Source: an uncultured Candidatus Saccharibacteria bacterium (GTDB lineage: Bacteria; Patescibacteriota; Minisyncoccia; Phycocordibacterales; XYD1-FULL-46-19). Taken from it: DNA of 64,000 nucleotides. The notes below the pieces were generated by a model. That model ran no database searches. It saw nothing but the letters and a program-made list of their open reading frames with translations, and was not told the DNA's origin. Positions within the stretch are counted from its first letter, which is position 1; the number at the start of each line of letters is the position of its first letter. Below are positions 4,184 through 58,401 of this stretch, piece by piece. The stretch covers positions 164,944 through 228,943 of the forward strand of contig CAZEAY010000001.1 in the NCBI GenBank assembly GCA_964510655.1. The letters run 5' to 3'. Both the position numbers and the translations under genes were made by a program.

Positions 4184-5149
4184 ATGTCTCAAATTCGAGT
4201 TGGAATTGTCCGTGGTGGACCTAGTTCAGAATATGAAGTCTCTTTAAAAACAGGAGGCAGTGTTTTGGCTAATTTACCAACTCATTACCATAAAGAAGAT
4301 ATCTTAATTACGAAGGATGGTGTTTGGCATTTGCGTGGCGAACCGATTGCTCGACAAAATTTGCCTAATTATATCGACGTCGCCTTTCTGTGTCTTCATG
4401 GAGAATATGGAGAGGATGGTCAGGTTCAGCGAATTTTAGAAACCGTTGGTCTACCTTACACGGGGTCGGGGAGTTTGGCTTCGGCTTTAGGTATGAATAA
4501 GTTGCATACAAAAAAATATTTATCAGCCCATGGCATTAAAATGCCTCGTCATATTCACGTTGTGGCTGGTGACAATCCAATTGAAAAAACCCATGAAGTG
4601 TTTTTAAAGTTTGCTCCGCCTTACATTGTTAAACCGACCGACCGGGGTTCATCTGTCGGCTTGTTTGTTGTAAAAAGCGTCCATGATTTGCCTCAGGCTA
4701 TTTCTGCCTGTTTACAGATTTCAGATTCTGTCTTGGTGGAAGAATTTATTCGTGGTAGAGAGGCAACCTGTGGGGTGGTAGAAAAAATGCGTGGTCATGA
4801 TATTTATCCTCTTTATCCCACTGAGATTGTTCCTCCCCCTAAGCAAACCTATGATTATGATGCTAAATATAATTCGGTCGAGACAAAAATTGTTTGTCCT
4901 GGACGCTTTGCTCCAGAAGAAAAGCATCAGATTGCCAGGCTGGCGGTTTTAGCTCACGAAAAACTTGGACTTAGACATTATTCTCGTTCTGATTTTATCG
5001 TTTCTCCTCGAGGAATCTATTATCTGGAAACAAATACTCTTCCCGGTTTAACAGACCATTCCCTTGTTCCTAAGGCGGTCTCGGCGGCGGGAATCAATTA
5101 TGGCGATTTTTTAGATCACTTGATTAAGCTTGCTCTGGGTAAGATCTAA
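4184..5149 (+). CDS. ddl: D-alanine--D-alanine ligase
   Basis: IRVGIVRGGPSSEYEVSLKTG, CLHGEYGEDGQVQRILETVGLPYTGSGSLASALGMNKLHTK, ATP-grasp C-terminal half; ATG at 4184 preferred over the upstream TTG. Confidence 0.9.
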   Translation: MSQIRVGIVRGGPSSEYEVSLKTGGSVLANLPTHYHKEDILITKDGVWHLRGEPIARQNLPNYIDVAFLCLHGEYGEDGQVQRILETVGLPYTGSGSLASALGMNKLHTKKYLSAHGIKMPRHIHVVAGDNPIEKTHEVFLKFAPPYIVKPTDRGSSVGLFVVKSVHDLPQAISACLQISDSVLVEEFIRGREATCGVVEKMRGHDIYPLYPTEIVPPPKQTYDYDAKYNSVETKIVCPGRFAPEEKHQIARLAVLAHEKLGLRHYSRSDFIVSPRGIYYLETNTLPGLTDHSLVPKAVSAAGINYGDFLDHLIKLALGKI

Positions 5150-5206
5150 AATTGAGTTTTTTTATTACTTCTTGGATTTTAATTAGTCGACTGATATAAT
5201 GTCTTT

Positions 5207-5491
5207 ATGGAAGGCGTTTTAAAGTCGGATATTTTCTTTTTTATCACCTCACTCGTAGTAATTTTGATTGGGATTGGGTCAGTTATGGTTTTCTTTTATT
5301 TGGTTAATATTTTGCGTGACGTTAAAGATGTTTCGCGCACTGTCAAAGAGGAAACTAGGGGTATTGCCGAAGACCTTTCACAATTACGAACCAAAGTGAA
5401 AACTGGTGGCGTGGTGGTTGGGGTGCTGACTTTTTTCCGTCGCTTATTGTCACGCAGTAAAAAAGGTCGTAAACATAGTAAGGGTAATTAA
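5207..5491 (+). CDS. hypothetical small membrane protein
   Basis: one N-terminal TM helix, basic C-terminus. Confidence 0.4.
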   Translation: MEGVLKSDIFFFITSLVVILIGIGSVMVFFYLVNILRDVKDVSRTVKEETRGIAEDLSQLRTKVKTGGVVVGVLTFFRRLLSRSKKGRKHSKGN

Positions 5492-5516
5492 AAAAATAAT
5501 TTTAAATATAAATATT

Positions 5517-5885
5517 ATGGCAAGTAAGAAAACAACAGGTGTTGGCGCCGCTGGGATGGTCGGGATTGCGGCTACTTTAGCTGCGGCGGTGGCAGGAGGC
5601 TATTTTCTTTATGGTAAAGATGGGGCCAAAAATCGCAAAAAGATAAAAAGTTGGATGTTAAAAGCTAAGGGTGAGGTTTTAGAACAAATGGAGAAGGGGA
5701 AAGAGATGACCGAAGAAACCTATCACAATGTTATTGATAAGGTGTCCCAAAAATATCAAGCGGTTAAGAATATTGATCCCACTGAATTGCAACAGATGAC
5801 AAAAGAATTGAAGGGTCATTGGAAAAGTATCAAGAGCCAATTGTCCCCCAAGGCTAAAAGTAAAAAGAAAGTAGCTAAAAAGTAA
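5517..5885 (+). CDS. hypothetical membrane-anchored, Lys-rich coiled-coil protein
   Basis: N-terminal TM/Gly-Ala-rich helix then charged helical region. Confidence 0.4.
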   Translation: MASKKTTGVGAAGMVGIAATLAAAVAGGYFLYGKDGAKNRKKIKSWMLKAKGEVLEQMEKGKEMTEETYHNVIDKVSQKYQAVKNIDPTELQQMTKELKGHWKSIKSQLSPKAKSKKKVAKK

Positions 5886-10575: not shown

Positions 10576-11229
10576 TTAGGACTCTTCATGGTCATGAAGC
10601 AGGGTTGATCTTTGGATTGCCCGTTGAATGGCGAGCCAAACTTCTTCCTTGCTGTCCTCGGAGTTTATCGAGTGGAAGTGTTGGGGTAGACGACCGCGCA
10701 GGTGGTCCAACATAGGTACGGTTTGAGTTTGATAGACTGCCCACCGTTTCTCCCATTTTTCGAGGGTGTCGTCTGAACGCCGCTCTTCTCCTTGTTTGCC
10801 TCGATTAAGGCACCTCATCTGTGAGGTCTCTTTCGAAATAACCAGAGAGAGAACGATTGGAGAAAGCATTCTTTCTCGATCAGAATACTCACAAATTCTC
10901 AATGCCTGAAGCACTGTTCGGGGACAGCCGTTTAGAATAACTGTTCCCTTGGTCTTTGCCACTTCATTGAAAACTTGCTCCAAAATGGTTTGGTCGGGTA
11001 TTAAGCCCCCACTGCTCGCTAATTGGACCAAGTCGGGTATGCGTCGACATATGTCGCCAGTTCCGATGTAGTGTGAGCCCTTGGTCCAACTCACCAACTT
11101 CTTCTTCCCATGCTCATCTTTCCCGGCGCCGGGACCACCCTCCAAAATGACGAAGCGGCGCCCAATATTAATTATTGGCGGCGCCTCCACGGTTATCGCT
11201 GTAAAAGATTGCAATATCCTCCACCTCAA
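10576..11229 (-). CDS. adenylate-kinase-family (NMP kinase-like) protein, GC-rich cassette, divergent P-loop
   Basis: RRFVILEGGPGAGKDE (P-loop with GKDE instead of GKGT), IGTGDICRR, GGLIPDQTIL, VILNGCPRT (like LLDGFPRT); no ATG at the 5' end (TTG or other start); GC visibly about 50%. Confidence 0.6.
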   Translation of the reverse strand: MRWRILQSFTAITVEAPPIINIGRRFVILEGGPGAGKDEHGKKKLVSWTKGSHYIGTGDICRRIPDLVQLASSGGLIPDQTILEQVFNEVAKTKGTVILNGCPRTVLQALRICEYSDRERMLSPIVLSLVISKETSQMRCLNRGKQGEERRSDDTLEKWEKRWAVYQTQTVPMLDHLRGRLPQHFHSINSEDSKEEVWLAIQRAIQRSTLLHDHEES

Positions 11230-11556: not shown

Positions 11557-11559
11557 ATG

Positions 11560-11630
11560 TGGACCCTAGGAGAATCGGACTCCTATCTCCCGGATGCAAA
11601 CCGGGTGCTCTACCACTAAGCTAAGGGCCC
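11560..11630 (-). tRNA. tRNA-Ala (anticodon UGC)
   Basis: reverse complement GGGCCCTTAGCTTAGTGGTAGAGCACCCGGTTTGCATCCGGGAGATAGGAGTCCGATTCTCCTAGGGTCCA folds as a cloverleaf; G3:U70 Ala identity pair; 7-nt anticodon loop TTTGCAT; CCA not encoded. Confidence 0.85.
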
Positions 11631-12706: not shown

Positions 12707-12740
12707 AATAGCAGCTATTACAGCTGCTATTTTTTACCAG
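12707..12740. terminator. bidirectional hairpin downstream of tRNA-Ala(GGC)
   Basis: aatagcagct-attac-agctgctatt flanked by A and T runs. Confidence 0.6.
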
Positions 12741-12811
12741 TGGACCTACCGGGAGTTGAACCCGGACCTGTTCCATGCCATGGAACCGTTCTACCGCTAT
12801 ACTATAGGCCC
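12741..12811 (-). tRNA. tRNA-Ala (anticodon GGC)
   Basis: reverse complement GGGCCTATAGTATAGCGGTAGAACGGTTCCATGGCATGGAACAGGTCCGGGTTCAACTCCCGGTAGGTCCA; G3:U70; T-stem CCGGG/CCCGG with loop TTCAACT; anticodon loop ATGGCAT. Confidence 0.8.
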
Positions 12812-14798: not shown

Positions 14799-15437
14799 TC
14801 ATTTGGTGCCGAACACACGGTCTCCTGCATCTCCCAGACCAGGGAGAATGTAGGCCTGTTCGTTCAGTTTGCGATCAATGGTTGCAGCAATGATCTGAAC
14901 AGAGGGATAAGTGCTTTGAATCTCCTTGATTCCCTCAGGCGCTGCGATAATGCAGAGGAAGGTGATTTTTTTGCACCCCCATTCTGCTACTTGCGAGATC
15001 GCGCTCTTGGCTGAGCCGCCGGTAGCCAGCATGATGTCGAAAATCAGCGAGTGATGATTATCGAGCACCCGTTCGACTGTCGGTTGTGGATAGTAGCGTT
15101 GGGGTTGGTGTCCATTGGCATCATCACGGAACATGCCGAGATGATACACTGGGGATTCTGGGAAGAGGATTCTTGCTGGTGGAATCATTTCCATTCCCGC
15201 ACGCATGATTGGTATCAGGGCGATGTTTTCCGCTACCCGATACCCATCTGTCACCTCCAGAGGTGTTTCCACCTGTCCAGTTTGGATCTCGATATAGCGC
15301 AGAGCTTCGAAAAGTAACGGGACGCTGATTTCGCGGATCAGATGGGCAAAACGGTCAGAGGGCGTGTCTTTGTTTCGCAGTGCGGTCAGCATGAGTTGAA
15401 TTGCCCTGTGCCCAGAGAGATTAATCACGCGATTCAT
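14799..15437 (-). CDS. upp: uracil phosphoribosyltransferase (GC-rich relative to neighbours)
   Basis: FDIMLATGGSA (like DPMLATGGS), ILPGLGDAGDRVFGTK (like IPGLGDAGDKIFGTK), PIMRAGMEM; GGAAGGAG SD upstream. Confidence 0.9.
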   Translation of the reverse strand: MNRVINLSGHRAIQLMLTALRNKDTPSDRFAHLIREISVPLLFEALRYIEIQTGQVETPLEVTDGYRVAENIALIPIMRAGMEMIPPARILFPESPVYHLGMFRDDANGHQPQRYYPQPTVERVLDNHHSLIFDIMLATGGSAKSAISQVAEWGCKKITFLCIIAAPEGIKEIQSTYPSVQIIAATIDRKLNEQAYILPGLGDAGDRVFGTK

Positions 15438-32174: not shown

Positions 32175-32552
32175 ATGCGCATCTCTGGTATCACTCTTCC
32201 AAATAAAAGAATCGAATATGCCCTAACGGCAGTTTACGGCATTGGGATTGCTCGTTCCAAAAAAATAGTAGCTGATGCCGGAATTCCTTTGGGTAAAAAA
32301 CCAGATGAGTTGTCTACCGACGAAGAAAACAGTATTCGTCGCGTCGTAGAGCAATTTAAGATTGAGGGAGATTTAAAGCGCGAGGTTAGTGCTAACATTA
32401 AGCGCCTAAAAGACATTGGATCTTATCGTGGCTCACGTCACGCCAAAGGATTGCCTAGTCGAGGACAACGAACCAAGACTAATTCCCGAACTCGCCGTGG
32501 TAATACCCGCAAGACTATGGGTTCTGGTCGCAAGAAAGTAGAGAAGAAGTAA
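32175..32552 (+). CDS. rpsM: 30S ribosomal protein S13
   Basis: MRISGITLPNKRIEYALTAVYGIGIARSKKI...; basic C-terminus. Confidence 0.95.
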   Translation: MRISGITLPNKRIEYALTAVYGIGIARSKKIVADAGIPLGKKPDELSTDEENSIRRVVEQFKIEGDLKREVSANIKRLKDIGSYRGSRHAKGLPSRGQRTKTNSRTRRGNTRKTMGSGRKKVEKK

Positions 32553-32575
32553 TCCTAATTCATATATAAATCAAC

Positions 32576-33004
32576 ATGGGAAAGAAACGAATAATCAAAG
32601 CAGGTACAGGAGACACTGGTTCACAAGCCAAGACTGCTTCACGTGGAGCCAAACGCCGAATCGAACACGGCACCTTGTATATTAACTCCAGTTACAACAA
32701 CACCACCATGCTTTTGACCGATGAAAAGGGTAATGCTGCCATGTGGTCTTCTTCTGGTTCTCTTGGTTTCAAGGGGGCAAAGAAGGGTACTCCTTTTGCG
32801 GCTGGTAAAGTAGCTGAACAATTAGCCGACAAAGCAATTGCCGCTGGATTGAAGGAGATTGATATTGTCGTTAAAGGTGTTGGTTCTGGTCGGGAATCTT
32901 CCATCCGTTCGTTTATTTCCAAAGGAGTGGCTATCGCGACTATTAAAGACGAAACCCCAGTTCCATTCAACGGACCAAAACCAAAGAAACCACGACGCGT
33001 TTAA
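32576..33004 (+). CDS. rpsK: 30S ribosomal protein S11
   Basis: GTLYINSSYNNTTMLLTDEKGNAAMWSSSGSLGFKGAKKGTPFAA. Confidence 0.95.
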   Translation: MGKKRIIKAGTGDTGSQAKTASRGAKRRIEHGTLYINSSYNNTTMLLTDEKGNAAMWSSSGSLGFKGAKKGTPFAAGKVAEQLADKAIAAGLKEIDIVVKGVGSGRESSIRSFISKGVAIATIKDETPVPFNGPKPKKPRRV

Positions 33005-33027
33005 AAATAATTTTCAATTAAAAAAAT

Positions 33028-33642
33028 ATGAGAGTTGGACCAAAATACAAAATCGCCCGCCGATTAGGAGACCGAATTTTCCCCAAGACACAGGGGACTA
33101 AGTTTACTGTGTCTGGTACAGAAAAAAAGAGTCACAGCAAAAAAGGCAAGCGAACAATGAGTGAGTACGGTCTCCAGCTTATTGAAAAACAAAAAGCCAA
33201 ATATACCTACGGTACTTCCGAAAAGCAGTTTTCCAACTATGTAAAAAAGACTCGCACCATGAAAAATGATTTACCGGCTGCTAATCTTTACCGCGCCCTA
33301 GAATCTCGTTTGGATAACGTGGTCTTCCGTATGGGGTTGGTAAATTCCCGCGCTTTTGCTCGCCAAGCAGTTTCCCACGGTCACATCACTATCAAAGGAC
33401 GTAAGGTAACTATTCCTTCTTGTGAAATCCATGTTGGAGATGTTATTGGAATCCGCCCAGGGAGTAAGGATAATGGAATTTTTCGTGATTTAGCTGAAAA
33501 GATGAAAAACCACACCGCCCCAAATTGGCTGTTGGTAGATCCTCTTAAGTACGAAGCGACTGTTCAAGGCTTACCATCATACAAAGATAAAGAGCCAAAC
33601 TTGAATTTCGAAGCAATCTTGGAATTCTATAGTCGCGTATAA
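33028..33642 (+). CDS. rpsD: 30S ribosomal protein S4
   Basis: MRVGPKYKIARRLGDRIFPKTQ...; S4 domain NLYRALESRLDNVVFRMGL. Confidence 0.95.
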   Translation: MRVGPKYKIARRLGDRIFPKTQGTKFTVSGTEKKSHSKKGKRTMSEYGLQLIEKQKAKYTYGTSEKQFSNYVKKTRTMKNDLPAANLYRALESRLDNVVFRMGLVNSRAFARQAVSHGHITIKGRKVTIPSCEIHVGDVIGIRPGSKDNGIFRDLAEKMKNHTAPNWLLVDPLKYEATVQGLPSYKDKEPNLNFEAILEFYSRV

Positions 33643-43337: not shown

Positions 43338-43367
43338 TTGACATTTTTTTATTTTAATATATAAAAT
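43338..43367 (+). promoter_or_regulatory. sigma70 promoter TTGACA-18-TAAAAT for the 43436 cassette
   Basis: ttaTTGACAtttttttattttaatataTAAAATaag. Confidence 0.5.
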
Positions 43368-43435
43368 AAGTAGATAGTTTCTATCTCATCTCGTTGTTTA
43401 TCCAACGACATGATTAAGAGGTTAAAGGTGAAACC

Positions 43436-43687
43436 ATGAAGCAGGAACATGCAAATGGGAAAACCTTCAAGCCTGACGATCGGGGTAGGGGGGTAGACGA
43501 AGATGGATTCGCCGTCTCCTCGGTAACCTTCATCACGAACATCAGAACCTGTGTTTCAGTGAACACGGGCGGAGAGATGATTCGTGTAAGGGGAACCAAC
43601 GACAAAACCCTGAATGAACTGTCATTCACCCGCGAAGAGTGGGCAGCGTTCATTGCTGGTGTCAAACTCGGCGAGTTCGACATTTGA
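43436..43687 (+). CDS. DUF397-like small protein (GC-rich cassette)
   Basis: C-terminus CVSVNTGGEMIRVRGTNDKTLNELSFTREEWAAFIAGVKLGEFD closely resembles the actinobacterial DUF397 C-terminal pattern (...CVEVA...VRDS.DP....L.FT..EW.AF..G.K.GEFD); AAAGGTGA SD. Confidence 0.5.
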   Translation: MKQEHANGKTFKPDDRGRGVDEDGFAVSSVTFITNIRTCVSVNTGGEMIRVRGTNDKTLNELSFTREEWAAFIAGVKLGEFDI

Positions 43688-43702
43688 ACCACACCCCAAA
43701 AA

Positions 43703-43740
43703 CCCCACAGTTTGACTCAAAAGGCTGTGGGGTTTACTTT
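43703..43740 (+). terminator. intrinsic terminator
   Basis: ccccacag...ctgtgggg stem then TTTACTTT. Confidence 0.7.
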
Positions 43741-43746
43741 ATATAT

Positions 43747-44508
43747 ATGAAAATTAAAAGTGCCACAAAGAAAGGAAGTTTACTTTATGCAGACTTAAGC
43801 CAACCAACCAAAGGCAATTCACAACTACTCATACCAATGAGTGGCTTTTCTGGTGGTTTGGACTTTGAGTTATTTAAATGTATAAAAGAAAAATTTCCAG
43901 ATGATCATACCGACACTCTAACTATTAATTTTTGTGATGAGGAAAATAAAAAAGATTATCCCCACACCATGAAAACGGAGGATTATTCATTAGGCATCTA
44001 TTCACGAGAATTAAAAAATATCATTGATTTATTTATTAAAAAATATTCAAATATAGTGTTAATTGGCCACAGTTTCGGCGCAATCATTGGTATAAAATTT
44101 TTGACCAAATATCCTAAGTATCAGAAAAAAATAAACCTTGTTATCTGGGACCCCAGTCTCCTCCCTTGGGGAATTAAAACTACTGAAGAGAACTTTGCGT
44201 TTGATAAAAAAAATAAACTATACAAATTTAATTTTGCTGATTTTTATATCAATAAAAAATTTTATAAGGAACTCGCAAAATTTGATTCCGTAAAATACTT
44301 CGGTAAAATTAAGACGCCCACACTAATAGTCGCTGCAGAAAACAGCGCAGATAAAGATTCAAAAAAATATTTATCTCATTCTCTAGATAAAAAAAATTCC
44401 AAGTTAGTCATACTTAAAAACACCGACCATTTCTTTACTGGAAGCAAAACTCGAAAAATCCTCTTAAAAGAAACAGCTGATTTTATAAAAAGTTCGCAAA
44501 CCTATTAA
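43747..44508 (+). CDS. alpha/beta hydrolase (esterase/lipase-like)
   Basis: MKIKSATKKGSLLYADL..., nucleophile elbow VLIGHSFGAI; track start 43639 is a spurious extension overlapping the previous gene. Confidence 0.6.
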   Translation: MKIKSATKKGSLLYADLSQPTKGNSQLLIPMSGFSGGLDFELFKCIKEKFPDDHTDTLTINFCDEENKKDYPHTMKTEDYSLGIYSRELKNIIDLFIKKYSNIVLIGHSFGAIIGIKFLTKYPKYQKKINLVIWDPSLLPWGIKTTEENFAFDKKNKLYKFNFADFYINKKFYKELAKFDSVKYFGKIKTPTLIVAAENSADKDSKKYLSHSLDKKNSKLVILKNTDHFFTGSKTRKILLKETADFIKSSQTY

Positions 44509-44625: not shown

Positions 44626-45135
44626 ATGTTGGAGACTGAGGATCAGATCGCATTACGCGATCGTGTCAGAATTATACGATCTCTCGATTTGGAACCAATC
44701 AAGTATAAGTTGGTTCACTCGGAAGATAAAACCATAACCAGAGAAGAAGCGGATCTTTTGGAGACAAGATACAAGGATTTCCTTGTTCTTTGCCTCAAAT
44801 ATCCCGACACCAAGATCGTCCCAGATCGTGGTGTTGACAATTTCTGGCACACACATATCCTGGACACACGGAAATATGCGGAAGACTGTCAATGTGCTTT
44901 CGGACGCTTTCTCCACCACTTCCCCTATTTCGGAATGATGGGTGATGAAGACGCCGCAAACCTGCAGGACGCTTTCACTGAAACCCGGCGCCTGCTCGCA
45001 GAAGAATTTGGTGGACAATATCTGGACCACCAACAAGAATCCAGATCATCCGACTGTGATGCCCAGCAATGTGATCCGTCTGAGTGTCACAACTTCGCCA
45101 GTGCACGCCCAAGACCAACCTTTGCGGCCGCTTAA
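44626..45135 (+). CDS. DUF1399/GRDP-like Cys/His-motif protein (GC-rich cassette)
   Basis: DNFWHTHILDTRKYAEDCQCAFGRFLHHFPYFG resembles the W-H-T-H...Y..D...G..L.H core of glycine-rich-domain protein (DUF1399) families; GGAAGGTGAGG SD. Confidence 0.45.
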   Translation: MLETEDQIALRDRVRIIRSLDLEPIKYKLVHSEDKTITREEADLLETRYKDFLVLCLKYPDTKIVPDRGVDNFWHTHILDTRKYAEDCQCAFGRFLHHFPYFGMMGDEDAANLQDAFTETRRLLAEEFGGQYLDHQQESRSSDCDAQQCDPSECHNFASARPRPTFAAA

Positions 45136-45151
45136 AGCCGCAACAATCAAA

Positions 45152-45193
45152 CCCTGCCAATTTTGAAAGGAACTTTGGCAGGGTTTTTTATTT
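45152..45193 (+). terminator. intrinsic terminator
   Basis: ccctgccaa-ttttgaaaggaact-ttggcaggg then TTTTTTATTT. Confidence 0.75.
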
Positions 45194-46099
45194 ACCGTGA
45201 AATTCAAGATTTGGCAAAGATTCACAATTTTTCACAAATCTATTCATCCAATCAATAGACATTTCAGACGATTGTTGTTTTTGTTCACTAAGATAATGAT
45301 CGCCCCCCTCAAAAATCACGAGTCGATAAGGTACTTTATTTTTATATAGTTCTTCCGCCATTCTAATGGAATCCAGTGGATTTACTCGCCAATCAGCAGT
45401 ACCGTGCATTAATAGAATTGGTACATTTTTCGGTAACTTATCAGCCCAATAAAGAACTGAGCGTTTTTTTAATTCCTCTTCGTTCCCACCAAACATTTTA
45501 ATATAATGATCTTCCATTTCAGGACGAAACTCTTTTTTAGTCAACAAATCTGTTGTACCAGCAACAATAACAGCGGCCTTTATCCAGTCAGTTCGAGCTA
45601 AAGCCAAATAGGTCATCATTCCACCTCGACTTGCTCCATACATACCGATCCGCGACGCATCAGCTCGAGAATATTTTTTAAGAATAGGGTACAAATTTAA
45701 AACATCTTCAATATCAGTTCCTCCCATTTCATCAACACCTTCTCCTCCAGCATTTCCAGAATATTGACTAAAAATTGTAATATATCCAGCCTTAGCAAAA
45801 AGACTCAGACGTAAAAACAAGTGGCCAATCTTAATGGAGCCAAAATCCCCAGACCCACCTCGATTGTAAATAACGCAAGGTAGATTTTCTCCTTCTTTAG
45901 GTTCGACAATATATCCGACAACCCTATGTCCTTGTGATAAATAAACCATTCGATAGACATTAATTAGTTTAGAGTTTTTTTCGGCCTCTAACACATAATC
46001 TGAACCTATTTTATCTTTTAGCTCCTGATCTAAAATTATTGATTTAACATCAACAATTCCATCTATGGACTTTAAAATATCTATATTATCTTCCTTCAT
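45188..46099 (-). CDS. S9-family serine peptidase / alpha-beta hydrolase (prolyl-oligopeptidase catalytic domain only)
   Basis: GASRGGMMTY (GxSxGG), MHGTADWRVNP (S9 HGxxD block); start set at MKEDNID (46097-46099); longer track ORF N-terminus overlaps the neighbouring promoter/gene and looks spurious. Confidence 0.6.
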   Translation of the reverse strand: MKEDNIDILKSIDGIVDVKSIILDQELKDKIGSDYVLEAEKNSKLINVYRMVYLSQGHRVVGYIVEPKEGENLPCVIYNRGGSGDFGSIKIGHLFLRLSLFAKAGYITIFSQYSGNAGGEGVDEMGGTDIEDVLNLYPILKKYSRADASRIGMYGASRGGMMTYLALARTDWIKAAVIVAGTTDLLTKKEFRPEMEDHYIKMFGGNEEELKKRSVLYWADKLPKNVPILLMHGTADWRVNPLDSIRMAEELYKNKVPYRLVIFEGGDHYLSEQKQQSSEMSIDWMNRFVKNCESLPNLEFHGK

Positions 46100-46176
46100 C
46101 TTTTCATTATAACACATAAAACTACAATGATTAATACTGGTGTTAATACTTATTTTAGAATGATGTTTGAAAAAAG

Positions 46177-46205
46177 CTGGATATATTTGACATATACACC
46201 AATAT
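46177..46205 (+). promoter_or_regulatory. sigma70 promoter TTGACA-17-TATCAT for the 46269 cassette
   Basis: TTGACAtatacaccaatatatgcTATCAT; AAGGAGG SD before ATG. Confidence 0.55.
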
Positions 46206-46268
46206 ATGCTATCATTAGAATAGAGTCTTAAACAGACCAAGTATTGAAAATCTACAAGGAGGTGCGGG

Positions 46269-46880
46269 ATGAGTAATCTGCTTATCGCTCTCGCTATTAC
46301 TCTGATCATCTTCGTCCTGTTCCTCCTATCGAGGAATTGGCGGCGAGTCGTCCAGATCGTGGCCGGCTGGGGTCTCTATGGAGCCCTGAACTGGTTCTAT
46401 GACAATCCGTTCTGGTTGCTTATTCAGAACCATTTCGGAGTTGTCGTCGGTTCAGCCATGCTAACTGTTGGTGCATTCCTAATCAATTTCTGTGTCCTTC
46501 ATTGGTATCAGAAGAAGGGAGTGGACTGGCTCGGAGTAGGAGTTCTCGAAGAAATCAAGGAAAAAGGACATGCTTGGGCAGAAAAGCTTTGCAACCACAG
46601 TCAGTGGTATGTGAAGATTCCTGCCTACATTCCTGCCAAGTTCTTTCAAGTCCTCGTCTGGGGGCTGAAGAAGAATGATGTATTGGCCTTTGTATTTCTT
46701 TCAGTCACACAGGATTCCTTTATCACCACCGCTTTCCTTCGTCACGGACGATTTGGAAAGTTGAGTAGCTGGGATTATGTTATCTTCTCACTGAGCACTA
46801 TCGTGAGTTGCGTAGTGCACAGCGTGTGGATGGCCACTATCCTGAGCCTGATCAAGGCAATCCTGTTGAAGATGAGCTGA
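46269..46880 (+). CDS. GC-rich cassette: polytopic membrane protein (203 aa)
   Basis: five or six predicted TM helices; own promoter, SD and terminator. Confidence 0.5.
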   Translation: MSNLLIALAITLIIFVLFLLSRNWRRVVQIVAGWGLYGALNWFYDNPFWLLIQNHFGVVVGSAMLTVGAFLINFCVLHWYQKKGVDWLGVGVLEEIKEKGHAWAEKLCNHSQWYVKIPAYIPAKFFQVLVWGLKKNDVLAFVFLSVTQDSFITTAFLRHGRFGKLSSWDYVIFSLSTIVSCVVHSVWMATILSLIKAILLKMS

Positions 46881-48188: not shown

Positions 48189-48779
48189 ATGGATCTGTCA
48201 TTTTTATATAAAATAAAAAAATTTTTTACAAAAAAAGAAAAACCCTTTGAAATAAAAGACACGGGTAAATATGGCAACGGCTGTTTTGCAACGAGAGATA
48301 TAAAGAAAGGGGAAACTATTACATTTTTCAACGGAGAAGTTATTACTTTTGAAGAAACAGAAAAAAGAATAGTTACAGGGGATGAAAACAGGACAGACTC
48401 CTTTCAGGTTGATCTAGAGATGGATATGGATTTGAACGAAGAAAGCAGGTCTTTTAATCATAGCTGTAATCCAAATGCTGGTTTTAGAGGTTTTAGTGAG
48501 ATGATTGCCCTTAGAGATATTAACAGGGGGGAAGAAATAACATACGATTATTCAGCTACGGTTGGTCCAAATATCCCAAAAACTTTATGGGAAATGCCTT
48601 GTTTCTGTAAATCAAATAACTGCAGGAAAATTATAGGTAATGTATTAACTATTCCAAAAGACCAACTTGATCAATATGTAGAAGCTGGCACTCTTCAAGA
48701 TTATATAAAAAAAGAGCTCGAAATAATCAAAAAAAATAATGGAATTTTACCCAAATATAAAGAAATTAAACCTCTATAA
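48189..48779 (+). CDS. SET-domain protein (putative protein-lysine methyltransferase)
   Basis: GNGCFATRDIKKGETI, NHSCNPN, EEITYDY, post-SET CFCKSNNC. Confidence 0.75.
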   Translation: MDLSFLYKIKKFFTKKEKPFEIKDTGKYGNGCFATRDIKKGETITFFNGEVITFEETEKRIVTGDENRTDSFQVDLEMDMDLNEESRSFNHSCNPNAGFRGFSEMIALRDINRGEEITYDYSATVGPNIPKTLWEMPCFCKSNNCRKIIGNVLTIPKDQLDQYVEAGTLQDYIKKELEIIKKNNGILPKYKEIKPL

Positions 48780-57929: not shown

Positions 57930-57967
57930 AGAACTAAAAATACCCAAGCAAGAATCTGCTTGGGTAT
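57930..57967 (-). terminator. intrinsic terminator for the NDK-like gene
   Basis: acccaagcag-attc-ttgcttgggt then T-run on the minus strand. Confidence 0.6.
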
Positions 57968-58401
57968 CATAGCATGCGGAAGACCCCAACGTCTTTTTCC
58001 GCTTCCATCATGTTCCTAGATCGATGAATGATATTTTGATAATATCTGACACCATCGATCATAAGGGGTTTTCTCCCGCCGAATTTAAAGCGTATACTTT
58101 CGGGGGAGCAATCGACAGGATCAAGTTCTGTGCCTGTGATTCGAAGAAGCGTACTAATAGCGTTTTTCCCAACTACAAGCCCTGCTTCAACGAGTCCATC
58201 CACAAGAGGTTTGAAAATTGCATCTCTGTACCTCTCAGGCAGGTCAGAATAAATGATTTCCAATGCCCAACGTGGCATCTCAAGACTCTTGCTACCTGAG
58301 ATAGTTAGGCCACCAGCCTCGATCATTGCTCTGACTTCTTCACGAAATACCAAACCATGGGGCTTGATAATGTAAAAACTAGTTTCCAGAGTACTGTCCA
58401 T
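57967..58401 (-). CDS. nucleoside-diphosphate-kinase-like protein (divergent, GC-rich)
   Basis: YIIKPHGL (like IIKPDG), PLVDGLVEAGLVVG, NIIHRSRN (NDK active-site N..H.S pattern); AGGAG SD; consensus promoter upstream. Confidence 0.55.
   Translation of the reverse strand: MDSTLETSFYIIKPHGLVFREEVRAMIEAGGLTISGSKSLEMPRWALEIIYSDLPERYRDAIFKPLVDGLVEAGLVVGKNAISTLLRITGTELDPVDCSPESIRFKFGGRKPLMIDGVRYYQNIIHRSRNMMEAEKDVGVFRML

Follow-up and report, generated by a model that had tools for sequence, protein, structure and literature searches.

Members of the BldB (DUF397) family are regulators of development and antibiotic production whose biochemical function is unknown. BldB does not bind DNA and hetero-oligomerises with paralogues that are encoded beside WhiJ, a regulator with XRE and DUF5753 domains, and AbaA; the canonical bldB gene is adjacent to neither whiJ nor abaA (PMC10294661). 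The family has been described as restricted to Actinobacteria (PMC10294661, PMC7159879), and actinobacterial genomes that carry it contain a median of 19 BldB paralogues (PMC10294661). The domain consists of four strands and a helix and contains CxE and RDS motifs (PMC7159879). DUF397 proteins were also predicted to be toxins that are paired with Xre antitoxins in type II toxin-antitoxin systems (PMC2701414; also PMC7159879), and none of the 14 DUF397 proteins that were overexpressed in S. coelicolor was toxic (PMC10364602).

The window that we analysed is a 64-kb stretch of DNA in which a forward-strand ORF (43436-43687) encodes a protein of 83 aa. A sequence-only reading of this DNA had recognised a DUF397 motif at the C-terminus of the protein and proposed that the Pfam profile be searched. 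The C-terminus consists of exactly the residues that had been quoted, and PF04149 (DUF397), the sole Pfam-A match of the protein, aligned to residues 38-77 over profile positions 16-55 of 55 with a score of 31 bits (gathering score 24; E = 2.8e-7), which bears out membership in the family. The AF2 model (pLDDT 86.2) contained the strands (residues 40-43, 49-53 and 61-64) and C-terminal helix (66-77) expected of the BldB family, together with beta-bridges (19-20 and 26-27) at the predicted position of the first strand and an ordered N-terminal extension. A comparison with solved structures returned no confident relative. BldB and its paralogues from Streptomyces and other Actinobacteria belong to the same family, are 60-100 aa in size and likewise have beta-strands followed by a C-terminal helix. 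The window protein shares with them the invariant Cys of strand 2 (Cys39), the Arg of strand 3 (Arg52) and an EW..F..GVKxGEFD C-terminus. However, it lacks the complete CxE motif of strand 2 and the complete RDS motif at the end of strand 3; the Cys and Arg are retained but the Glu and Ser are lost, such that these positions read CVS (C39-V-S41) and RGT (R52-G-T54). In contrast to the median of 19 copies in actinobacterial genomes with BldB, we found one DUF397 copy, a count that applies to the 64-kb window only. A 92-aa antisense ORF (43414-43692, minus strand) spans the entire DUF397 gene, and we assumed it to be a side effect of GC richness in the sense frame.

A word-indexed homology search with the single protein recovered only the protein itself and one relative. 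When 1.84 billion representatives were searched exhaustively with HMMER (E ≤ 1e-3), 203 representative relatives were identified, the best of which were about 83 aa long, 45-55% identical and aligned over the whole query. A separate scan of one genome per GTDB species, with a 6-sequence alignment as the query, yielded 80 loci. The closest relatives were full length and 44-57% identical, and all of the best genome matches were in CPR MAGs, with lineages that included Nomurabacteria, Paceibacterota, Wolfebacteria, Kaiserbacteria, Zambryskibacteria, Taylorbacteria, Saccharibacteria, Andersenbacteria, Minisyncoccia and Parcubacteria. Every match in the genome scan that extended over residues 1-83 or 21-83 at 44-53% identity was from CPR/Patescibacteria, whereas actinobacterial matches (Pseudonocardia, Actinokineospora, Streptosporangiaceae and others) were confined to residues 39-83 at 30-48% identity. 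When a trimmed alignment was used, the mean identity of the window protein was 46% to CPR-type sequences (maximum 56%) and 37% to actinobacterial sequences (maximum 48%).

A CPR-type profile matched 587 clusters at the 90% identity level (E ≤ 1e-5). All 120 of the matches listed for this profile carry the PF04149 annotation, their named source organisms are CPR with the one exception of Verminephrobacter, and the NCBI label of these relatives is 'DUF397 domain-containing protein'. The consensus of the CPR branch is CV[S/A] and R[D/N]T where Actinobacteria have CxE and RDS, and many of its members contain a 'GNGxxF...GxKVDEDGF' N-terminal extension. Thus, the branch to which the window protein belongs differs from BldB in its occurrence in CPR, in both motifs and in its N-terminal extension. 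The sequence-only reading had also asked for a phylogeny with actinobacterial homologs, which was run as an NJ tree. The window protein grouped with CPR neighbours, the Nomurabacteria and Paceibacterota proteins of loci L002 and L003, with a bootstrap value of 72/100, but the strict CPR-type bipartition was recovered in only 15/100 replicates of this 67-column alignment. Because the latter value is weak, we placed the protein by its sequence identity, alignment coverage and gene context and not by the tree.

The family is not confined to Actinobacteria, as its members include hundreds of CPR clusters as well as proteins from some gammaproteobacterial MAGs, Endozoicomonas and Verminephrobacter. 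DUF397 genes were present at native GC in three Gammaproteobacteria MAGs (L012, L019 and L041), an Endozoicomonas MAG (L036) and Verminephrobacter (P0256), and neither an XRE gene nor a hydrolase gene was found among the ORFs flanking these five genes. With proteobacterial genomes carrying the gene at native GC, the family extends beyond both Actinobacteria and CPR.

The window gene had been thought to stand alone, which is not the case. Directly downstream on the same strand is a gene (43747-44508) for a 253-aa serine esterase with an alpha/beta-hydrolase fold, which was identified by motif, AF2 modelling and synteny; this gene has no Shine-Dalgarno (SD) sequence and a GC content of 0.30. We clustered the neighbours of 25 CPR loci plus the window and found that the gene adjacent to DUF397 in CPR falls into one of two clusters, c1 or c2. 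The c2 proteins, among them the window copy, are about 250 aa long and contain a GHSFGA motif. The c1 proteins are 150-195 aa long, contain GFSxGA or GHSIGG, and are encoded on the same strand as DUF397 or convergently. The two clusters are homologous (hhalign probability 97.4%, E = 1e-11). A hydrolase gene adjoins DUF397 in 19 of 25 CPR loci that were picked without regard to their neighbours (20 from the genome scan and five more). Within the genome-scan portion, clustering and tblastn placed a c1 or c2 gene next to DUF397 in 16 of 20 loci that had enough downstream sequence. The five additional CPR-type loci, also chosen blind to context, contained one c2 gene, two c1 genes, one S9 prolyl-oligopeptidase gene and, in one case, no hydrolase gene. 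The loci without the hydrolase (5-6 of 25) include L011, L028, L032, L168 and L172, the last of which has the S9 peptidase instead. When the search was started from the hydrolase, a DUF397 ORF was immediately upstream in three of four further independent c2 loci, one of these ORFs being uncalled in the source annotation. Overall, 11 of the 12 independent c2 loci have DUF397 directly upstream of the hydrolase gene, and L085 is the exception. The hydrolase gene is convergent in three loci (L004, L006 and L017), and none was found in the actinobacterial, gammaproteobacterial or viral DUF397 loci that we examined.

The order dnaJ-DUF397-hydrolase is common to the window and a Nomurabacteria MAG (L014) whose DnaJ is 51% identical, which is in line with the earlier view that the gene sits in a CPR-like genome. 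For 10 c2 pairs, DUF397 and hydrolase pairwise distances were correlated (Mantel r = 0.54, p = 0.015), a correlation that could reflect shared species history. Several related observations were made near these genes. At L172 (3001-5461, Patescibacteria MAG), DUF397 is followed by a terminator and then by the gene for the 678-aa S9 prolyl-oligopeptidase, which is also a serine hydrolase with an alpha/beta-hydrolase fold. The window encodes an S9 peptidase as well (45188-46309, minus strand), 1.5 kb downstream of the DUF397 region and on the opposite strand. Just past the window hydrolase is the gene for a GRDP-like/UCP032817-like protein (44626-45135) with a 42%-identical relative at L082 (1433-1921), where the gene lies about 2 kb upstream of the DUF397-hydrolase pair of that locus. 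It is possible that the GRDP-like protein belongs to the neighbourhood as a third, more loosely associated member.

This arrangement resembles the XRE-DUF397 pairs of Actinobacteria (Scr1/Scr2, WhiJ-BldB and the DUF397-Xre toxin-antitoxin pairs predicted by Makarova et al. 2009) in that a small DUF397 protein is encoded beside one conserved partner. Retention of DUF397 beside one conserved partner gene suggests that the protein acts through that partner. However, the pairs differ in three respects. The XRE gene comes first in Actinobacteria, whereas DUF397 is first in the CPR pair; the actinobacterial partner is an HTH regulator with a DUF5753 domain, whereas the CPR partner is an enzyme; and the CPR pair, unlike the XRE-DUF397 pairs, has a terminator between its genes. 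Also in contrast to the BldB paralogues, the CPR gene has the esterase rather than WhiJ or AbaA as its neighbour. A search for a partner HTH gene elsewhere in the genome had been suggested. We compared an HMM of WhiJ-like proteins (36 actinobacterial neighbours) with a six-frame translation of the entire 64-kb window and obtained no match at E ≤ 10, nor was there a conserved HTH regulator beside the CPR-type DUF397 genes among the main neighbour clusters of the 25 CPR loci that we clustered. We also considered whether the CPR hydrolase could be a relative of the actinobacterial partner WhiJ/DUF5753, and this possibility was ruled out (hhalign probability 0.1%).

The predicted structure of the 43747-44508 product (AF2; pLDDT 90.9, pTM 0.90) has the alpha/beta-hydrolase fold with a GxSxG elbow and a catalytic His. 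Foldseek matched the model to esterases and lipases with a probability of 1.0, and the top PDB folds were cinnamoyl/feruloyl esterases, TTL lipase, PET46 and monoacylglycerol lipase (TM 0.75-0.83, 16-21% identity). GHSFG and His228 are invariant in 14 hydrolase sequences. The catalytic acid probably belongs to the NSADKD stretch and is not strictly conserved. Both c1 and c2 proteins gave weak matches to many alpha/beta-hydrolase Pfam families; all matches of the partner enzyme to Pfam and NCBIfam hydrolase families were below threshold and pointed to no specific family. From its residues and predicted fold, the partner is apparently an active serine esterase whose catalytic Ser and His are intact. 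It resembles LJ0536, Est1E, TTL lipase and PET46 in its fold, small inserted lid, GxSxG motif and catalytic His but is only 16-21% identical to them in sequence. No DUF397 partner is known for any of these four enzymes.

Examination of the window revealed the signals that had been described around the DUF397 gene. A sigma-70-like promoter (43338-43367, plus strand), which is a pattern match only, consists of TTGACA (43338-43343), an 18-nt spacer and TAAAAT (43362-43367); with 11 of 12 consensus matches, it was the best within the 1.5-kb region scanned. An SD-like AAGGTGA (43425-43431, plus strand) ends 4 nt upstream of the DUF397 ATG. A hairpin scan identified an intrinsic terminator-like structure between the DUF397 and hydrolase genes (43700-43745, plus strand), in which a hairpin of 14 pairs, six of them G-C (43700-43735; RNAfold -21.5 to -22.5 kcal/mol), is followed by a T-rich tail. 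The statement that the GC content of the gene is above that of the backbone was correct (0.512 versus 0.381 for the window), and its GC3 of 0.595 is the highest of the 59 ORFs in the window (mean 0.345, sd 0.073), 3.4 sd above the mean.

These properties recur across the CPR branch. The same-strand DUF397-hydrolase pairs are separated by 44-127 nt. Under a strict rule, 14 of 16 pair spacers and 3 of 16 control spacers contained a strong, GC-rich hairpin with a T-run after it, the controls being 16 other spacers of similar length from the window (Fisher p = 2.4e-4). The hairpins occupy the same position, yet their sequences are unrelated from locus to locus. The hydrolase ATG is 5-20 nt past the hairpin within AT-rich sequence. 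An SD-like motif precedes the DUF397 gene in 19 of 21 CPR loci and the hydrolase gene in 2 of 19, against 14-27% of the other genes at the 21 loci. In the window, such a motif (-4 to -18) was found in only 6 of the 53 other ORFs, which is about the level of chance; the dnaK, grpE and apparent ribosomal-protein genes (32175-33642) have AT-rich leaders, and those of dnaK and the ribosomal-protein genes are without an SD sequence. Thus, the genome of the window seems to be largely SD-independent, as do the neighbouring genes at the 21 other loci. We rejected the absence of an SD sequence as a hallmark of the hydrolase because most genes in these genomes lack one; the DUF397 gene is the exception. 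DUF397 had a higher GC3 than the genes around it in 24 of 30 loci (mean +0.10, p = 7.5e-5), whereas the partner hydrolase had a lower GC3 than the genes around it in 15 of 16 (p = 6e-5). When the DUF397 genes of 21 loci were pooled, the GC excess was apparent for NNY (0.56 versus 0.37), NNR (0.47 versus 0.36) and four-fold sites (0.54 versus 0.44). With its candidate promoter, SD sequence, GC-rich codons and own putative terminator hairpin, the DUF397 gene appears to be a self-contained unit. Upstream of the hydrolase, the terminator T-run is followed in two loci (L005 6216-6290 and L009 1145-1216) by TATAAT, 6 nt and the hydrolase ATG, a spacing that would yield a leaderless mRNA, and other loci contain a TATAAT-like sequence 2-5 nt from the hydrolase ATG.

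Elsewhere in the window, additional GC3-rich genes (0.41-0.58 versus the mean of 0.345) were identified at 44626-45135 and 46269-46880 and, on the minus strand, at 14799-15437, 10576-11229 and 57967-58401. Unlike nearly all of the native genes, most of them have a canonical SD sequence (such as aaggaggtg upstream of 46269 and ggaaggtgagg upstream of 44626), and their products include the GRDP-like protein, a membrane protein without a Pfam match, UPRTase and an adenylate kinase-like protein. Two are within 3 kb downstream of DUF397, so that the 43.4-46.9 kb region is a mosaic of GC-rich genes with SD sequences and AT-rich genes without them. The window also encodes a SET-domain protein (48189-48779; PF00856, 61.8 bits) beside a histidine kinase and contains two tRNA-Ala genes with TGC and GGC anticodons (11559-11630 and 12740-12811, minus strand), 1.1 kb apart.

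The sequence-only reading had put the DUF397 gene of the window forward as a strong candidate for host-to-symbiont transfer, a proposal to be weighed against close homologs being widespread in other Patescibacteria. On this explanation, the gene would be a lone foreign insert that a CPR episymbiont recently received from an actinobacterial host. Its high GC3 and its SD sequence in a genome where few ORFs have one would fit such an import, as would the abundance of the family in Actinobacteria, to which it has been assigned exclusively in print (PMC10294661, PMC7159879), and the presence of the classic CxE/RDS type in some CPR MAGs (L050, a Saccharibacteria MAG, and L081). However, close homologs are indeed widespread, since the nearest relatives are full-length proteins from many CPR lineages and actinobacterial proteins align over residues 39-83 only; the CxE and RDS motifs of Actinobacteria are missing from the window protein, its dnaJ-DUF397-hydrolase order is found in a distant Nomurabacteria MAG, and the partner hydrolase was specific to CPR among the loci that we examined. 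The whole CPR branch shares high GC3, an SD sequence and a private terminator, so these features do not mark the window gene as a recent import. On these comparisons of sequence and gene order, the import explanation appears largely refuted, and we consider it very improbable. Actinobacteria and CPR may nevertheless have exchanged the gene in the distant past, at the root of the branch; a domain of about 65 residues carries too little signal for so old an event.

Two readings of the distinctive layout remain: it may serve to express a small protein strongly, or it may mark a self-contained cassette that moves among CPR genomes. According to the latter, DUF397 would travel between CPR, possibly on phage or integrative elements, the window copy would have come from a GC-richer, SD-using CPR donor, and its adjacency to the esterase gene would reflect a landing-site preference or co-transfer. 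Mobility would account for GC being raised at all three synonymous-site classes and for the frequency of SD sequences in DUF397 genes relative to other genes. It would also fit the divergence of the window copy, which is the most divergent of the c2-paired set (≤ 55% identity to any other), the large serine recombinases near DUF397 in L005 and L073, the CPR-type copy on a predicted viral contig (L089), the match of the window protein to PHROG 10815 (39.5 bits), and the other GC3-rich, SD-bearing genes close by at 44626 and 46269. However, dnaJ synteny is kept between the window and L014, and DUF397 and hydrolase distances are correlated. Moreover, we found no repeats, integrase or tRNA flanking the gene in the window, and the composition of the hydrolase is biased in the opposite direction, which is unexpected under co-transfer. 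On balance we regard movement of a cassette as rather unlikely.

Our preferred interpretation is that the window ORF is a divergent BldB-family member of a CPR-wide branch, that it is not a recent actinobacterial import and that it acts on its esterase partner; we assign this interpretation a probability of roughly 60%. In the proposed mechanism, the small DUF397 protein would be produced in excess and would work by protein-protein contact, as is thought for the BldB paralogues and their neighbouring regulators. Here it would act on the esterase so as to restrain, target or otherwise modulate this enzyme, and the terminator would set the ratio of the two products, with high DUF397 and low esterase. 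The more specific proposal that the CPR pair is an unrecognised two-protein module, in which an excess of the BldB-like protein directly binds and controls the serine esterase, is offered tentatively; co-function, binding and the direction of the effect are all suggested by gene arrangement and by analogy with BldB.

A hairpin between the genes is also what would be expected of two unrelated transcription units. The esterase could be a housekeeping enzyme that happens to be encoded nearby, with DUF397 acting alone, like canonical BldB, on a partner encoded elsewhere. Such independence would be consistent with the strength of the intervening terminator, with the differences in codon and SD usage between the genes, with loci in which the hydrolase is missing or convergent, and with the absence of whiJ and abaA next to canonical bldB (PMC10294661). 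Less easily reconciled with it is adjacency at about 76-80% of loci from lineages in which the surrounding genes are wholly different. The pairing holds for two divergent hydrolase subfamilies, and DUF397 is upstream in all but one of the 12 c2 loci. We therefore doubt that the two genes are unrelated, although this alternative is nearly as credible as direct control of the esterase in a two-protein module.

The order of the genes, a small gene with strong expression signals followed by an attenuated enzyme gene, is also reminiscent of a toxin-antitoxin or effector-immunity pair, in which a harmful esterase or lipase would be limited by the terminator and neutralised by abundant DUF397 protein, or the roles would be swapped. 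DUF397 was once predicted to be a component of toxin-antitoxin systems (PMC2701414, PMC7159879); however, the 14 DUF397 proteins overexpressed in S. coelicolor were non-toxic (PMC10364602). PADLOC protein models (E ≤ 0.01) matched neither the DUF397 protein, either hydrolase type nor the GRDP-like neighbour, inspection of the esterase N-terminus by eye identified no obvious signal peptide-like start, and a mobile-element context was not seen in most loci. A pair of this type is improbable, clearly more so than unrelated neighbours.

Inspection of DUF397 loci in other genomes revealed several unusual arrangements. The DUF397 gene of L073 (5962-6192; Candidatus Parcubacteria MAG, JALUMP010000159.1) contains two in-frame TGA codons, both at positions where its relatives have Trp, one of which is the invariant Trp of the EEW motif. 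When TGA was read as sense, a neighbouring ORF (4775-5653) was extended from 203 to 299 aa, and the upstream serine recombinase uses TGG nine times and TGA never. Either TGA is recoded as Trp in a mobile element, or two TGG codons have become TGA stops by mutation. In L009 (843-1145; Candidatus Parcubacteria MAG, JBEDID010000062.1), an in-frame TGA is at the position of the invariant DUF397 Cys, which is present in its close relative L005. This gene could be a pseudogene or contain a sequencing error, or the TGA could in principle be part of a Sec/Cys pair.

L050 (4751-6138, Saccharibacteria MAG) and L081 (4969-6120, Parcubacteria M6-OD1-1) encode DUF397 proteins of the classic CxE/RDS-like type at the low GC native to their genomes. 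The proteins contain an internal duplication of the CVEV strand, and the DUF397 gene of each locus adjoins a divergent, homologous gene for a 250-aa TrmB-like winged-helix regulator (PF01978, 27 bits), a pairing that differs from the actinobacterial XRE pairing. The L050 and L081 copies would be better candidates for host-derived DUF397 genes than the window gene. In IMG/VR we found 84 DUF397 relatives, L090-L167 among the loci, nearly all of them of the classic type on high-GC contigs (median 0.67) resembling actinophages. The CPR-type gene of L089 is on a predicted viral contig of 43.9 kb with a GC content of 0.42 (IMGVR_UViG_3300024520_000149).

These findings carry a caution for the interpretation of single loci, as high GC, an SD sequence and a private terminator can mimic a recent foreign insert and yet be traits of a gene family. 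The CPR branch widens the range of the BldB family beyond the Actinobacteria-only distribution stated in the literature (PMC10294661, PMC7159879). What is new in this branch is an enzyme partner in place of the XRE regulator, together with a distinctive expression layout, and it offers a simpler setting in which to examine the role of the fold. If the two-protein module exists as proposed, the BldB fold would be a general partner-binding adaptor, and the biochemical role of BldB, which has been unsettled in Streptomyces for decades, would be open to study in a minimal two-gene system.
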